From NCBI RefSeq assembly GCF_000406145.1, contig NZ_CM001976.1, positions 4,425,175 to 4,457,174 of the forward strand: a DNA stretch of 32,000 bases. Direction: 5' to 3'. Below are positions 6,442 through 12,187 of this stretch, piece after piece. Source of the DNA: Dickeya dadantii NCPPB 898. GTDB taxonomy: Bacteria; Pseudomonadota; Gammaproteobacteria; Enterobacterales; Enterobacteriaceae. The first letter of the stretch is position 1; every line of letters starts with the position of its first letter. The notes under the pieces were generated by a model. The model was not told the DNA's origin and ran no database searches. It saw nothing but the letters and a program-made list of their open reading frames with translations. Position numbers and translations under genes: made by a program.

Positions 6442-7524
6442 ATGAATCCTCTGTTCAAACCGTTACTGGCCGGCATGACGCTGGCGATGTCTCTCTCCGC
6501 GCTGGCGCAGACCGGCGATAAAATCGTGATTGCCCACCGCGGCGCCAGCGGCTACCTGCCGGAGCACACCCTGCCCGCCAAGGCGATGGCCTACGCGCAG
6601 GGCGCGGACTATCTGGAGCAGGACCTGGTGATGACCAAAGATAACGCGCTGGTGGTGCTGCACGATCACTACCTTGATCGCGTGACCGACGTTGCCAGCC
6701 GTTTTCCCGGCCGGGCGCGGGCTGACGGCCGTTACTACGCCATCGACTTTACGCTGGCGGAAATCCGTTCGCTTAAATTCACCGAAGGGTTTGACCTGAA
6801 AGACGGCAAGCCGGTGCAGAGCTACCCGAATCGTTTCCCGATGGGCAAATCGGACTTTCGCGTTCACACCTTTCAGGATGAAATCGAATTTATTCAGGGG
6901 CTGAACCACTCGACCGGCAAAAATATCGGCATCTATCCGGAAATCAAAGCGCCGTGGTTCCATCGTCAGGAAGGCAAAGATATTTCACGCGCGGTGCTGG
7001 AGGTGCTGAAACAGTACGGCTACAGCCAAAAAAGCGACCGGGTTTACCTGCAATGCTTCGACGCCAACGAGCTACAGCGCATCAAAACCGAACTGGAGCC
7101 GGCGCTGGGCATGAACCTGAAGCTGGTACAACTGATCGCCGAAACCCGCTGGCAGGAAACCCAGCAGCAACAGCCGGACGGCCGCTGGGTCAACTATGAC
7201 TACGACTGGATGCTCAAGCCGGGCGCGATGCAGAAAATCGCCCGCTACGCCGATGGCGTCGGCCCCGACTATCACATGCTGCTCAGCGGCGAAGCGGGCA
7301 AGGTCGCCATCAGTCCGCTGGTGAAAGAGGCGCACGCCAGCGGCATGGTGGTGCACCCTTACACGGTGCGGGCGGACCGGCTGCCGAAATACGTCAACGA
7401 CGTGAACGCGCTCTATGCGCTGCTCTACCGGCAAGCCGATGTGGACGGCCTGTTCACGGATTTCCCCGACAAGGCCGTCGCGTTCCTGCATTCACCGCCG
7501 GATGCCCGGCCGTCTCAGAAATAA
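6442..7524 (+). CDS. glpQ: Periplasmic glycerophosphodiester phosphodiesterase
   Basis: 360 aa. Signal peptide (MNPLFKPLLAGMTLAMSLSALA), then KIVIAHRGASGYLPEHTLPAKAMAYAQGADYLEQDLVMTKD as in E. coli GlpQ. Confidence 0.96.
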   Translation: MNPLFKPLLAGMTLAMSLSALAQTGDKIVIAHRGASGYLPEHTLPAKAMAYAQGADYLEQDLVMTKDNALVVLHDHYLDRVTDVASRFPGRARADGRYYAIDFTLAEIRSLKFTEGFDLKDGKPVQSYPNRFPMGKSDFRVHTFQDEIEFIQGLNHSTGKNIGIYPEIKAPWFHRQEGKDISRAVLEVLKQYGYSQKSDRVYLQCFDANELQRIKTELEPALGMNLKLVQLIAETRWQETQQQQPDGRWVNYDYDWMLKPGAMQKIARYADGVGPDYHMLLSGEAGKVAISPLVKEAHASGMVVHPYTVRADRLPKYVNDVNALYALLYRQADVDGLFTDFPDKAVAFLHSPPDARPSQK

Positions 7525-8312
7525 AGACGACGCAGGTATTGTGGCACCGCCTGATCGATGTTGGTGCCAATCACCTCGTTGTCCGGCAGCATATCCTTCA
7601 GTCGCTGGTGGGCATTGCTCATGATGCAGCCTTTGCCCGCCATCGACAGCATTTCATAGTCGTTCATGCCGTCGCCGAAGGCGATACAGTCTTTGATAGT
7701 GTGACCGAGGATTTTGGCGACCTGCTCCAGCGCGTGGCCTTTGGATACGCCGCCCGCCATCACCTCCAGGCAACTCAGGGTGGAAAAGCTGACGTTCACC
7801 CGGTCGCCCCAGCGCGCGTTAAGCGCTTCTTCCAGCGGCAGCAGTTTGTCGTGATCCTCACAGGTGAAAAACACCTTGCCGACGCCGTCGGTACCCAGCG
7901 TTTCCGGGTCGAACAGTTTGTAGCGGAACACCGTCTCGGTAAAAAAGCGCTCTTCCTCGGGGCGGGAGCGACACAGGAACCACTCGTCGCCGCGATAAAC
8001 GTGGGTCATGATTTCCGGATGGTGATACACCATGCCGAACAGATCGTGGGCGATATCGCGGTCCAGATTGTGGCTGAAAATCAGCTCGCCTTCGGTGTTA
8101 TGCACCCGCGCGCCGTTAGACGTAATCATGTAGGCGCTGATCGCCAGATTATCGCGGATTTGCGCCACATCCATATGGTGACGTCCGGTGGCGAACACAA
8201 AATGGACGCCCTGTTCCGTCATCAGGCGCAGGGTTTCTTTGGCATAGGGTGACAGGGTGTGATCGGGTGACAGCAAGGTGCCATCCAGATCGGAAGCAAC
8301 AATCGGGTACAT
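7515..8312 (-). CDS. yigL: HAD-family sugar-phosphate / pyridoxal-phosphate phosphatase YigL
   Basis: ORF 7515..8483 trimmed to ATG 8312. MYPIVASDLDGTLLSPDHTLSPYAKETL parallels E. coli YigL MYQVVASDLDGTLLSPDHTLSPYAKETL. 265 aa versus 266 aa in E. coli. Confidence 0.93.
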   Translation of the reverse strand: MYPIVASDLDGTLLSPDHTLSPYAKETLRLMTEQGVHFVFATGRHHMDVAQIRDNLAISAYMITSNGARVHNTEGELIFSHNLDRDIAHDLFGMVYHHPEIMTHVYRGDEWFLCRSRPEEERFFTETVFRYKLFDPETLGTDGVGKVFFTCEDHDKLLPLEEALNARWGDRVNVSFSTLSCLEVMAGGVSKGHALEQVAKILGHTIKDCIAFGDGMNDYEMLSMAGKGCIMSNAHQRLKDMLPDNEVIGTNIDQAVPQYLRRLYF

Positions 8313-9470: not shown

Positions 9471-10091
9471 ATGACCCAGGACTGGTGGTTAACCTACCTC
9501 GTCACCACATTAATTCTCAGCCTGTCGCCCGGCTCCGGCGCCATCAACACCATGAGCACCAGCATCAGCCACGGTTACCGCGGCGCGATAGCCTCCATCG
9601 CCGGGCTGCAGCTGGGCCTGACTATTCACATCGTGCTGGTGGGGATCGGCCTGGGGGCGTTGCTGTCTCAATCGGTGCTGGCCTTCGACATGCTGAAATG
9701 GCTCGGCGCCGCTTACCTGATCTGGCTCGGCATCCAGCAATGGCGCAGCGCCGGCTCGCTGGACCTGCAGACGCTGGCTAACAGTATGCCGCGCCGCCGT
9801 TTATTCAAACGGGCGATTCTGGTCAACCTGACCAACCCGAAAAGCATCGTGTTTCTGGCCGCGCTGTTCCCGCAGTTTATTATCCCGCATCAGCCCCAGG
9901 CGATGCAGTATCTGGTGCTGGGCGTCACCACCGTGGTGGTCGACATCATCGTGATGATTGGCTACGCCACGCTGGCGCAGCGCATCGCGCTGTGGCTAAA
10001 AGGCCCGCGTCAGCTCAAACAGCTGAACCGGACCTTTGGTTCGCTGTTCATACTGGTCGGCGCGCTGCTGGCGACGGCCCGCAAAGCCTGA
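9471..10091 (+). CDS. rhtB: Homoserine/homoserine-lactone efflux protein (LysE/RhtB family)
   Basis: ORF 9435..10091 trimmed to ATG 9471. [39 protein letters not shown] parallels E. coli Rht[29 protein letters not shown]. 206 aa, as in E. coli. Confidence 0.93.
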
Positions 10092-10248
10092 ATCCCGATG
10101 AGCTTACTCAGGTAAGTGATTCGGGTGAACGACAACTCTGCCGGGAGCAGATTTGAACGCAGCGTGCTGCGACCCTGAAAGGGCGAGGCCCAAGCATGGG
10201 CCGAGTAATAAAGTCAACGCACCTGCAACGTGAAGTATGACGGGTATA
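10088..10248. repeat. ERIC (enterobacterial repetitive intergenic consensus / IRU) element, long variant
   Basis: ctgaatcccgatgagcttactc matches the reverse complement of the ERIC1R primer (GTGAATCCCCAGGAGCTTACAT) at 17/22. aggtaagtgattcgggtgaacg matches ERIC2 (AAGTAAGTGACTGGGGTGAGCG) at 18/22. The right end cgcacctgcaacgtgaagtatgacgggtata matches the remembered ERIC right arm. The element overlaps the rhtB stop codon and ends exactly at the stop of the orphan gene. Confidence 0.85.
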
Positions 10249-11139
10249 TCATAAGAATATCACTTTATTATCTTTTGATGGTGGAAACCAGAAAACATCG
10301 GAAAATACGATAAAGTCTCCACCTGAATTATTTCTCTCCTGCCAACGTCTAAAATCCGAATTCCATATCGGATAAAATCCCGGATATTTATTTTCCAGTA
10401 AACCAGATAGCCCCGCAATATAATATGAAAAATAGACTACTGTCTCCACCTTATTCAAAATACGGTCTTTACTCCACACCCCTAATAATTCCGGCCTTAT
10501 AATATCAATACTATTCATTACTCTTTCATCAACAAAGTCATACGCATCTTTGAGATATACACCGATTGATTCAAGAGAAAAAATAGATTTATTTTCATGT
10601 ACAGATGTATAGCCACGCACTGCAAGTTTAAGATTTGCTTTCCCGATTGCGCCATACCAATCATTAATCGTATCCAGAATGCCGCCAACGTCAACACCAC
10701 TTACCTGTGCTGAGGCATCCAGTACTCTGGCGCTATCACTGTACCCTAGCTTCACTAATCCACCTGGAGTATATCCTTCAGATACCAGCCTTTCTTTCAG
10801 GAGTGCAATAGCGTTGTGATTGTCCCAACTTTCTTGTAATTGGTGAAATCTTTCTATTACTTGTGGGTATTTCAATGCCCAATCCATTTTTACGATGGTG
10901 TCGTTATACTCATTTTCCTTTAATGTTCTGGCATCAGTATTAAATAAGGTGTTCTTGCTTTCTATTGTCCATTTTACCGCCGGGCTGATACTAAACCAGT
11001 GTTTCATCAACTGAGGAGCAACTTTCCAGCCCATTTTCTCCATAGCGATGATAATTTGAACAAGAGGAAATGCCTTAGCGCCAGCTTTCTCCTCGTCAGT
11101 ATTGGATGCTGAAGAGGCTTTGGGGTTTTCAACCGCCAT
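10249..11139 (-). CDS. Hypothetical protein, 296 aa, in an AT-rich insertion. Function and family unassigned.
   Basis: It is the only long ORF in 10.1-11.5 kb (track ORF 10249..11259). I prefer ATG 11139 because AAGGA lies 7 nt upstream, whereas ATG 11259 has no RBS and sits upstream of the candidate promoter. No signal peptide or hydrophobic helix. Notable motifs: MEKMGWKVAPQLMKHWF, VKMDWALKYP, NSDFRRWQERNNSGGDFIVFSDVFWF. Confidence 0.75.
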   Translation of the reverse strand: MAVENPKASSASNTDEEKAGAKAFPLVQIIIAMEKMGWKVAPQLMKHWFSISPAVKWTIESKNTLFNTDARTLKENEYNDTIVKMDWALKYPQVIERFHQLQESWDNHNAIALLKERLVSEGYTPGGLVKLGYSDSARVLDASAQVSGVDVGGILDTINDWYGAIGKANLKLAVRGYTSVHENKSIFSLESIGVYLKDAYDFVDERVMNSIDIIRPELLGVWSKDRILNKVETVVYFSYYIAGLSGLLENKYPGFYPIWNSDFRRWQERNNSGGDFIVFSDVFWFPPSKDNKVIFL

Positions 11140-11188
11140 GATCGAATCCTTACCTGTTCTGGAAAACAGAATTTGACGATACTTTCTT

Positions 11189-11217
11189 TTAATATGTGAT
11201 TGTACAAATTTGTGTAA
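11189..11217 (-). promoter_or_regulatory. Candidate sigma70 promoter for the orphan gene
   Basis: Minus strand: -35 TTACAC (11217..11212), 17-nt spacer, -10 TATTAA (11194..11189). This predicts a 5' UTR of roughly 40 nt before ATG 11139. Based on pattern match only. Confidence 0.35.
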
Positions 11218-11438
11218 GCAAACCCTCAGCAATACCCGTTGAGCGTTCGCAACCGTCATTCCAGAGGAAAAATATTCAAGGTGCGTTCATTCGCTTGGTT
11301 TATCAGGCAAAAATTGCATCAGGCGCTCCGGTCAGCGATACCCCCCGGAGAGTGCCATCAACAAATATACCGCCCCGAACCAATGAGTTATTCAGGAGCC
11401 GATGCGATCAATGAGGAGAAAGCGCTAATTAGAGAGGA

Positions 11439-11468
11439 CTGGTTTCCGGTACGACTATCGGAAACCAG
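11439..11468 (-). terminator. Perfect 10-bp stem-loop downstream of rhtC (possible terminator or RNA-stability element)
   Basis: ctggtttccg (11439-11448) and cggaaaccag (11459-11468) with a 10-nt loop, 36 nt after the rhtC stop. The minus-strand tail tcctctctaatt is only moderately T-rich. Confidence 0.4.
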
Positions 11469-11503
11469 CGAATAATATCTGTAAATAAAAAAGCGGGTGG
11501 AAT

Positions 11504-12127
11504 TTAACGCGAAATAATCAGGTGGATGCCGAACCCGGTAAACAGCACGCCTGCCAGACCGTCCACCCATTTCGCCAGCCGCTGATACCCGCGGCGCATC
11601 ACCGGCAACGCAAACACCAGCGCCACCAGGCTGAACCACAGCAAGGTTTCCAGTGAAATCAGCGCGAACAGTCCCCAGCGCGCCGCCGCCCCCACGTCAT
11701 CGCCGACAAACAGCGAGAACACGCTGCCGAAATAGATCAGCGCCTTGGGGTTGGACAGGTTAGTCAGGAAACCACGCATGAAGGTTTTACCCTGCTGCGG
11801 CAACGCCACTTCGACAGTTTCCTCTCCCTGATGAGCTCGCTTACGCAGAGCCGAACGCAGCATCTGCCAGCCCATCCAGCACAAATACAGACCGCCGCCG
11901 ATCGTGACCAGACGATGCAGCCACGCCATGCGCTCCAGCAGCAGATGCAGCCCCATCAACGCGATGGCGGCCCATACCAGCACGCCCAGCGTAATCCCCA
12001 GCACGCCCATCAACGCTTCGCGGCGGGAGCGGCTGATCGCCGTCTGGGAAACAAAGAAGAAATCCGGCCCCGGACTCATCAGCGCAATCAGATGCACCAG
12101 CGCTACCGTGAGAAACAGCATCAACAT
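11504..12127 (-). CDS. rhtC: Threonine efflux protein (LysE/RhtB family)
   Basis: ORF 11504..12184 trimmed to ATG 12127, with AAGGA 6 nt upstream. MLMLFLTVALVHLIALMSPGPDFFFVSQTA parallels E. coli RhtC MLMLFLTVAMVHIVALMSPGPDFFFVSQTA. The C-terminus GFGIHLIISR is identical. Confidence 0.93.
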   Translation of the reverse strand: MLMLFLTVALVHLIALMSPGPDFFFVSQTAISRSRREALMGVLGITLGVLVWAAIALMGLHLLLERMAWLHRLVTIGGGLYLCWMGWQMLRSALRKRAHQGEETVEVALPQQGKTFMRGFLTNLSNPKALIYFGSVFSLFVGDDVGAAARWGLFALISLETLLWFSLVALVFALPVMRRGYQRLAKWVDGLAGVLFTGFGIHLIISR

Positions 12128-12187
12128 ATTCATTCCTTTTTTACGTTCCAGAGAAGGCGAAGACCCGGCCGGTAGACTAAGCACGCC

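Follow-up and report, generated by a model that had tools for sequence, protein, structure and literature searches.

We examined a 32,000-nucleotide stretch of the genome of Dickeya dadantii NCPPB 898 (contig NZ_CM001976.1, forward-strand positions 4,425,175 to 4,457,174; hereafter the window, with positions counted from its first letter), in which an orphan gene of the DUF6402 family lies between rhtB and rhtC, two genes coding for LysE-family exporters. The D. dadantii origin fits, with the best protein match (P0001) being 99% identical and seven D. dadantii contigs showing approximately 99% nucleotide identity at the locus. The two exporter genes are convergent, with 1412 bp from the rhtB stop codon at 10091 to the rhtC stop codon at 11504, versus approximately 60 bp in Escherichia coli, where rhtB and rhtC together give one match of about 1303 bp in each of the 5426 complete genomes. 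Thus, an earlier note on this DNA, made from the letters alone, was right in placing about 1.4 kb between two genes that are neighbors in E. coli. The gap is filled by a repeat of the enterobacterial repetitive intergenic consensus (ERIC) type, a minus-strand open reading frame (ORF) that codes for the DUF6402 protein, and 364 bp of non-coding DNA (Table 1).

The G+C content of the DUF6402 gene is 39.4%, as against 58.4% for the whole window, and at third codon positions it is 35% versus 75–83% in rhtB, rhtC and recQ. This agrees with the insert having been called foreign AT-rich DNA, and the three hand counts of G+C on which that claim was based (21/60, 17/60 and 41/60) were all exact on recount. 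Neither an integrase nor a partner gene is present at the locus, as had also been claimed, and the genes called up to 10 kb away on each side are of the housekeeping kind, with no type VI secretion system (T6SS) gene among them. An exact look-up of the window RhtC protein returned no match. The gene had further been credited with a promoter of its own; here, a sigma-70 scan called no site upstream of it, and the total for the region was not above the shuffled expectation. A scan for terminators called no such site between rhtC and the DUF6402 gene, and the hairpin at about 11437–11468, which sits downstream of rhtC, has no U-run after its stem in the fold prediction.

Table 1. Features of the rhtB–rhtC gap in the window and of related loci; L numbers are our handles for the loci compared, and positions without a handle are those of the window.
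Feature	Location	Strand	Remarks
rhtB, LysE-family exporter	9471..10091	+	206-aa ORF; Pfam LysE (from the identical gene in related strains); matches E. coli gene annotated rhtB; conserved left flank
ERIC-type dispersed repeat, long form	10089..10249	.	161 bp; shares bases with the rhtB stop codon and reaches that of the DUF6402 gene
Swapped cassette as a whole	10095..11503	.	1409 bp, 42.3% GC; homology with L026/L027 ends at 10094 and restarts at 11504
Orphan DUF6402 gene, intact	10249..11139	-	296 aa; PF19940 E = 9.5e-85; AlphaFold2 pLDDT 86.9
Vestigial ATG of lost DUF6201 gene	10250..10252	-	TTATGA stop/start overlap kept; frame then enters ERIC
PAAR carrier gene 3'-end pseudogene remnant	11140..11320	-	last ~180 nt (putative C-terminal effector-recruiting extension); stop codons and frameshifts
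Shine-Dalgarno-like TAAGGA	11147..11152	-	7 nt upstream of the ATG; aligns with 3' ends of PAAR genes
Rest of cassette	11321..11503	.	11-bp perfect-stem hairpin ~11437-11468; at most one difference between strains or species
rhtC, LysE-family exporter	11504..12127	-	conserved right flank; same strand as the DUF6402 gene and upstream of it
Alternative cassette	L026 4625-5916 and L027; site of 10095-11503		HPP-family membrane protein (158 aa) and divergent TetR regulator (185 aa)
Module of D. chrysanthemi Ech1591 and Pectobacterium parmentieri			hcp - vgrG - PAAR (174 aa) - DUF6402 - DUF6201 (141 aa); overlapping reading frames
Module of Enterobacter cloacae	between tssJ and tssE, core T6SS cluster		vgrG (825 aa) - DUF6402 - DUF6201; extra DUF6402 fragments downstream
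Module of Snodgrassella alvi			PAAR - DUF6402, then up to six DUF6201 genes
Module of Pseudomonas retamae			tssA, tssB, tssC, tssE - PAAR - DUF6402 - small membrane proteins - tssF
Modules of IMG/VR loci	beside P4-like primase and capsid genes		Hcp with C-terminal extension (~244 aa) - DUF6402 - DUF6201
PAAR carriers with extension	L009 7807-8001, L011, L018, L032		
Hcp carriers with extension	L033-L040		244-257 aa
VgrG carrier with extension	L015 ~7800-8001		

The earlier note had tentatively suggested that the 296-aa protein might belong to DUF6402, and the profile search proved that suggestion correct: the match is full-length (284.6 bits against a cut-off of 26.4), with residues 24–294 falling on profile positions 1–277 of 278. 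We take the ATG at 11139 as the start, since the homologues all start there and a TAAGGA lies 7 nt upstream; the ORF list and some GenBank annotations extend the frame to 336 aa from an ATG at 11259, which is an upstream extension. The TAAGGA itself derives from the last codons (..VGIR) of a former PAAR carrier gene. At a level of at least 90% identity, the protein clusters with Dda3937_00311 of D. dadantii 3937 and with copies from D. dianthicola, and the family as a whole comprises 1120 clusters at 50% identity with an E-value of 0.001 or better. The window protein has neither a signal peptide nor a cysteine, and with a maximum Kyte-Doolittle 19-residue mean of 1.05 it is also, as described before, without a transmembrane segment.

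Across 96 diverse members of the family, a set of polar positions is conserved, namely D198, Y200, D/E201, N260, D275, S280 and D281. The window protein keeps D198, Y200, D201, F202, L219, G220, W222, N260, G273, D275, S280 and D281, and in its N-terminal segment an isoleucine takes the place of a proline that is 89% conserved at position 30. The polar set together with the absence of cysteine suggests an acid-based, possibly metal-dependent, hydrolase. In the AlphaFold2 model, an N-terminal helical domain (residues 28–143) precedes a β-rich C-terminal domain. The model is confident; Foldseek recovered no PDB structure at an E-value of 0.001 or better, and searches of the PDB sequences with phmmer and a 39-sequence profile likewise gave nothing meaningful. 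NCBIfam, PADLOC and PHROGs returned nothing meaningful for the window protein (only noise-level Cas7f matches from PADLOC, and none from PHROGs). The only significant structural relative found for the model (10252–11139) is the BFVD entry A0A8S5UBA3, described as a 668-aa "tail protein" on a Caudovirales contig of metagenomic origin (E = 9.5e-11, TMq 0.55, 322 columns), which may be either a tail protein of a phage or a spike-like T6SS protein that contains this domain. We found no relative in phage records, and the plasmid collection held distant members only, in Burkholderia, Caballeronia and Ralstonia.

Residues 130–207 (about 10519–10752) show a likeness to Cas7f/Csy3 in four independent libraries (Pfam, E 0.014–0.14; PADLOC, E 0.007; PDB 9irf, E 0.099; Foldseek 7wwu, E 1.5). 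All of these lie far below the respective thresholds, and we rejected homology in favor of what is probably a local resemblance of long β-hairpins. In Kosakonia sacchari SP1 (L005 10001–10904), a DUF6402 homologue is split over three reading frames in tblastx and looks like a frameshifted pseudogene.

The gene neighborhoods of the homologues provide the context for understanding the orphan. DUF6402 relatives lie directly after a gene for PAAR, Hcp or VgrG in Dickeya, Pectobacterium, Enterobacter, Aeromonas, Snodgrassella, Pseudomonas and Photorhabdus/Xenorhabdus-like elements, and one to six DUF6201 genes come after them. In a scripted pass over 21 loci, each holding an effector ORF, a carrier ORF ends at the effector start in 19, of which ten are PAAR-sized, eight are extended Hcp proteins and one is a VgrG; in 17 of these 19, the carrier is closed by a shared C-terminal motif, (D/E)Y(V/L/I)FQ(T/I)(K/R)xGI(R). 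On the other side, a small ORF adjoins or overlaps the effector downstream in 19 of the 21 loci, and 17 of these 19 small ORFs have a hydrophobic segment (17-residue mean of at least 1.9) within their first 60 residues; in the two Pseudomonas loci, the small ORF is called from an upstream GTG. Hence, the neighborhoods place the homologues in T6SS modules. A C-terminal extension of about 65 aa can be aligned across the PAAR, Hcp and VgrG carriers that precede DUF6402, and is probably a dedicated effector-recruiting adaptor domain; we found no description of it in the searchable literature. One protein, P0209, is a fusion of a PAAR_motif with DUF6402.

DUF6201 proteins feature a basic N-terminal stretch followed by one hydrophobic helix. 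By the positive-inside rule, the body of such a protein is predicted to face the periplasm. The predicted structure of DUF6201 has a pLDDT of 59, too low for its Foldseek matches to carry meaning. From the gene order, the arrays of the kind formed by immunity genes, the displaced DUF6402 fragments and the PAAR fusion, it follows by context that DUF6402 is likely to be a T6SS cargo toxin acting in the periplasm, with DUF6201 as the likely immunity protein. Three of the IMG/VR contigs (L034, L035 and L038) carry the unit of extended Hcp, DUF6402 and DUF6201 with a P4-like primase (about 808 aa) on one side and genes for capsid, protease and portal on the other. The modules on these contigs appear to be cargo of phage-satellite-like elements, which would offer a possible route of mobility.

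At the window locus, each of these neighbors is broken or gone. Upstream, tblastx homology continues beyond the DUF6402 ATG, and 11140–11320 aligns collinearly with the final ~190 nt of PAAR genes (46/66 for D. chrysanthemi, z = 8.8 against shuffles; 109/167 for the P. parmentieri PAAR gene, z = 5.3 against shuffles). Translated, the remnant reads NFCL..Q.N ... KFCFPEQVRIR versus HFCLADQEN ... LDYVFQTRAGIR in the intact gene. A protein hidden Markov model of the carrier extension gave a non-significant match to the region upstream of the ATG (E 0.28), the support for the remnant thus being at the nucleotide level only. Nowhere in the 32-kb window did tblastn find a PAAR, and the vgrG, PAAR or hcp linkage that marks the family is here reduced to the stub of approximately 180 nt.

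Downstream, the intact modules have a DUF6201 ORF that begins 3 nt before the end of DUF6402, and DUF6201 comes after the effector in 19 of the 21 related loci. In the window, tblastn detected no trace of DUF6201 (best E 0.24), and no cognate immunity gene adjoins the DUF6402 gene; the ERIC element fills the position that the immunity gene holds in the intact modules. The order within the cassette is therefore PAAR stub, DUF6402, immunity-gene ATG and ERIC. From its position, the ERIC element may have had a part in the deletion of the immunity gene.

We assign 10089–10249 to the dispersed ERIC-type repeats because it matches one to four unannotated intergenic places in 5259 of the 5426 E. coli genomes; for 685 genomes, the identity is 78–80% across some 160 bp. 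It folds into a structured imperfect palindrome (−52.9 kcal/mol, z = −1.95) and so has the properties of an ERIC repeat, namely dispersal, intergenic location, a length of about 127 bp or more, imperfect palindromy and presence in enterobacteria. In these respects it is like known ERIC elements, matching their dispersed E. coli copies, and it is the only copy within the window. The contacts described in the earlier note, with the stop codon of the gene touching the ERIC element and the latter overlapping the rhtB stop, were both borne out. Since homology with L026 ends at 10094, the element belongs to the variable segment.

The extent of that segment became apparent from contigs that code for an identical RhtB protein, eight of which extend past rhtB. 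Six of these eight carry the DUF6402 cassette, while two (L026 and L027) have in its stead a 1292-bp segment (55.6% G+C) with the HPP and TetR genes, and their homology with the window breaks exactly at 10094 and 11504. The cassette is thus polymorphic, and the rhtB–rhtC gap, for which two or more occupants are known, is a variable spot in D. dadantii and D. dianthicola. In D. dianthicola CP051429, an orphan copy occupies the same site.

Between D. dadantii strains, the cassette differs at zero to five of 1412 positions, as against 1.1–3.2% in rhtC. Between D. dadantii and D. dianthicola, the synonymous divergence (dS) of the DUF6402 gene is 0.022, compared to 0.17 in rhtB, 0.20 in rhtC and 0.36 in pldB, and the two species are identical over the 364 non-coding bases upstream of the gene. 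By these measures, the cassette appears to be about ten times less diverged than its flanks. The tract of low divergence runs from about 10077 to 11662, where it ends 160 bp inside rhtC at what is probably a recombination crossover. Given this low divergence relative to the flanks and the crossover tract, we consider the cassette to be young and to have moved between lineages by homologous recombination. The changes within the gene are few: five non-synonymous versus one synonymous within the species, and an omega of about 0.39 between species, resting on ten changes, too few to separate it from 1. The window lineage is also accelerated, with a mean identity of 44.6% to 34 outgroup members versus 49–51% for the module-borne relatives, and it departs from the family at six conserved columns as against one or two in those relatives.

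Some further observations concern the vicinity of the cassette. rhtC is a mosaic, in that its last 160 bp (11504–11662) are identical between the window and D. dianthicola and the remainder is about 7% different. Eight linked differences at 11540–11609 split the D. dadantii strains into two haplotypes, forming recombination footprints beside the cassette. In the spacer between rhtC and recQ (12128–12187), the window represents an empty site, and other Dickeya strains (L021 at 6658–6931, L017 and L043) carry an insertion of 214–216 bp flanked by a CTAAG duplication and bounded by terminal inverted repeats (AGCCTATCCCAGTAGG ... CCCTAATGGGATGGGCT). This insertion looks like a miniature inverted-repeat transposable element and is unrelated to the ERIC element.

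Taken together, we regard it as likely that the locus is a stranded fragment of a T6SS effector–immunity module, with the toxin gene intact, the carrier reduced to a stub and the immunity gene lost, and that it is undeployed in D. dadantii. An intact module would consist of a PAAR, Hcp or VgrG protein with the ~65-aa C-terminal extension, DUF6402 and then one or more DUF6201 proteins. DUF6402 would ride on the carrier extension as a cargo toxin, be fired into the periplasm of neighboring Gram-negative cells and act there on a target in the envelope via the conserved acidic site (D198, Y200, D/E201, N260, D275, S280 and D281). DUF6201 would be anchored in the inner membrane by its N-terminal helix, with its body predicted to be periplasmic, and neutralize the toxin in kin. 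The window fragment would have settled in the rhtB–rhtC gap and, in recent times, been spread through homologous recombination. As neither a cognate carrier nor an immunity gene was detected for D. dadantii, the protein is most likely not loaded onto a T6SS, and, having no signal peptide, it would stay in the cytoplasm. The persistence of the gene without an immunity partner would then be explained by a periplasm-acting toxin being harmless in the cytoplasm when there is no carrier. In support of this, a word-based DUF6201 search of limited reach returned D. dianthicola, D. fangzhongdai, Pectobacterium and Xenorhabdus and no D. dadantii, and the PAAR cluster has no D. dadantii member. Thus, the window copy is probably a young, idle relic, whose intact reading frame would reflect its youth rather than demonstrated selection. 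Of the options offered in the earlier note, an orphan toxin and a remnant of a larger island both agree with an intact toxin gene next to a PAAR stub and a lost immunity gene.

Several points weigh against an idle relic and favor an orphan that still works as a weapon, being expressed, loaded onto a PAAR, VgrG or Hcp protein encoded elsewhere and fired at competitors, with self-protection coming either from an immunity gene that is unlinked or cross-reactive or from the absence of the target in kin cells. The DUF6402 ORF is intact in all eight copies read, from two species, and the conserved polar residues are all kept; the omega of 0.39 hints at some constraint; and the Shine-Dalgarno-like site has survived. 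Expression by read-through from rhtC is possible, as rhtC precedes the DUF6402 gene on the same strand and is followed by no clear terminator. A divergent carrier or immunity gene may also exist elsewhere in D. dadantii genomes, the searches not having been exhaustive, and D. dianthicola CP051429 holds, besides its orphan, a complete PAAR–DUF6402–DUF6201 module that could supply the carrier. T6SS effectors orphaned from the main clusters are moreover a known phenomenon. The searchable literature contains no experimental report of T6SS-dependent secretion, toxicity or immunity for any DUF6402 or DUF6201 protein.

Nevertheless, we hold a working weapon to be unlikely. For D. dadantii, our searches, which were not exhaustive, yielded neither a cognate carrier nor a DUF6201, the lineage is accelerated and its N-terminal segment has diverged, including the proline at position 30. 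The youth of the cassette by itself accounts for the intact frame, since the 364 non-coding bases are equally unchanged, and a periplasmic toxin fired without immunity would intoxicate siblings. On balance, though not decisively, an undeployed relic is more likely than a weapon still being fired.

A different assignment of the two families, with DUF6402 as an adaptor or chaperone for another effector (e.g., the carrier extension) and DUF6201 not being an immunity protein, seems to us very improbable. It would accommodate the failure to recognize an enzymatic fold in DUF6402. The genes for the T6SS adaptors DUF4123, DUF1795 and DUF2169 also directly follow vgrG or PAAR genes, which counts in its favor. 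However, the carrier extension is only about 65 aa long and common to PAAR, Hcp and VgrG, and the up to six DUF6201 copies after a single DUF6402 are a hallmark of immunity-gene accumulation. The displaced DUF6402 fragments downstream of the pair in Enterobacter are as expected for swapped toxin ends, the PAAR–DUF6402 fusion puts DUF6402 in the position of the toxin, and the strictly conserved acidic and polar residues suggest catalysis. Least probable of all, to the point of deserving hardly any weight, is the domestication of the gene for a new cytoplasmic role in defense, regulation or virulence unrelated to the T6SS: its retention at one site in two species and its diverged N-terminus could be so read, but recency explains the retention, some strains have a different cassette, there is no partner gene, and PADLOC and PHROGs gave nothing above noise. 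The same results, with homologues sitting in T6SS modules and not in defense islands, go against the stand-alone defense or virulence gene that the earlier note had envisaged.

The stranded-module reading places the DUF6402 family alongside known T6SS cargo effector–immunity pairs, with which it shares the order of carrier, effector and small immunity gene, overlapping frames, arrays of immunity genes, an N-terminally membrane-anchored immunity protein that implies action in the periplasm, an AT-rich foreign composition and, in some members, fusion to PAAR. A close parallel is DUF3289/DUF943, a proposed colicin M-like effector–immunity pair (PMC11148199). The window differs from such pairs in lacking both the carrier and the immunity gene, and sequence comparison detected no link of DUF6402 to DUF3289, colicin M or any other characterized toxin, nor did the PDB yield a fold match at an E-value of 0.001 or better. 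The locus also resembles orphan vgrG modules and rhs orphan C-terminal ends in being a T6SS-derived gene away from a T6SS cluster, bounded by a repeat and variable between strains. However, the described orphans usually keep the immunity gene, often as the sole survivor, whereas the window keeps the toxin instead.

One resemblance bears on what the toxin might do. In DUF6402, the residues D198-x-Y200-D201-F202 (consensus DTYDFxDD) are nearly invariant and come after a long β-hairpin, and they are similar to D226-K-Y-D-F of ColM in the colicin M family (PF14859; ColM, pectocins M1 and M2, syringacin M and PaeM). The immunity protein of ColM, Cmi, is membrane-anchored at its N-terminus, and the site of action of ColM is the periplasm, as proposed here for DUF6402. 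The formal comparisons did not reach significance: in hhalign, the top segment between DUF6402 and ColM (query sequence identical to 2xmx) was the 9-column DxYDF motif, with a probability of 0.2% for ColM alone and 1.7% for a 7-sequence ColM profile, and syringacin M (4fzn), although the top PDB match in Foldseek, had an E-value of 0.45, a probability of 0.15 and a TM-score of 0.14–0.15 over 102 columns. The Pfam Colicin_M profile had no match in 39 DUF6402 members at E-values up to 10, and the conserved His-Arg of the colicin M catalytic motif D-x-Y-D-x5-H-R is absent from DUF6402. Members of the colicin M family cleave lipid II between undecaprenyl and pyrophospho-MurNAc, an activity assayed by thin-layer or high-performance liquid chromatography (PMC5892711). 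We treat cleavage of lipid II by DUF6402 as a doubtful proposition, for which the colicin M-like motif is a weak lead. Equally speculative is a broader version, in which DUF6402 would represent an enzymatic class new among the T6SS toxins that act in the periplasm, having a fold for which no relative is solved, recruited to PAAR, Hcp or VgrG via the ~65-aa extension, with an acidic site convergent with or remotely descended from the colicin M DxYDF and cleaving lipid II or another undecaprenyl-linked precursor. If this were true, Dda3937_00311 of D. dadantii 3937 would be an active toxin rendered harmless only through the loss of its carrier. Separately, we observed that two proteins (P0263 and P0264) carry a colicin M catalytic domain as their C-terminal toxin end, preceded by a ..YSPEQGRWLSRDP..NLY..GN.P motif of the Rhs type. 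Thus, the lipid II-cleaving domain would also be delivered as a polymorphic Rhs toxin.

As a kind, T6SS effector–immunity modules are known, and in the supplement of one study DUF6402 appears, with no function given, as Foldseek cluster 170 of the T6SS effectors (PMC11148199); the window copy is a decayed example. The text of the searchable literature does not name DUF6402, DUF6201, PF19940, PF19703 or Dda3937_00311, and the supplements of recent T6SS pan-genome papers yielded nothing on them. Through the present analysis, two Pfam domains of unknown function gain roles from context, DUF6402 as a likely toxin and DUF6201 as its likely membrane-anchored immunity protein, along with a carrier extension that is shared between PAAR, Hcp and VgrG; none of these is described in that literature. 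For the organism, the locus would be an accessory islet with a broken toxin module, which would explain a hypothetical gene (the one clustering with Dda3937_00311) in a model plant pathogen. It would further illustrate module decay taking its rarer course, where the toxin persists but its immunity gene does not, as fits a toxin that is harmless unless exported.

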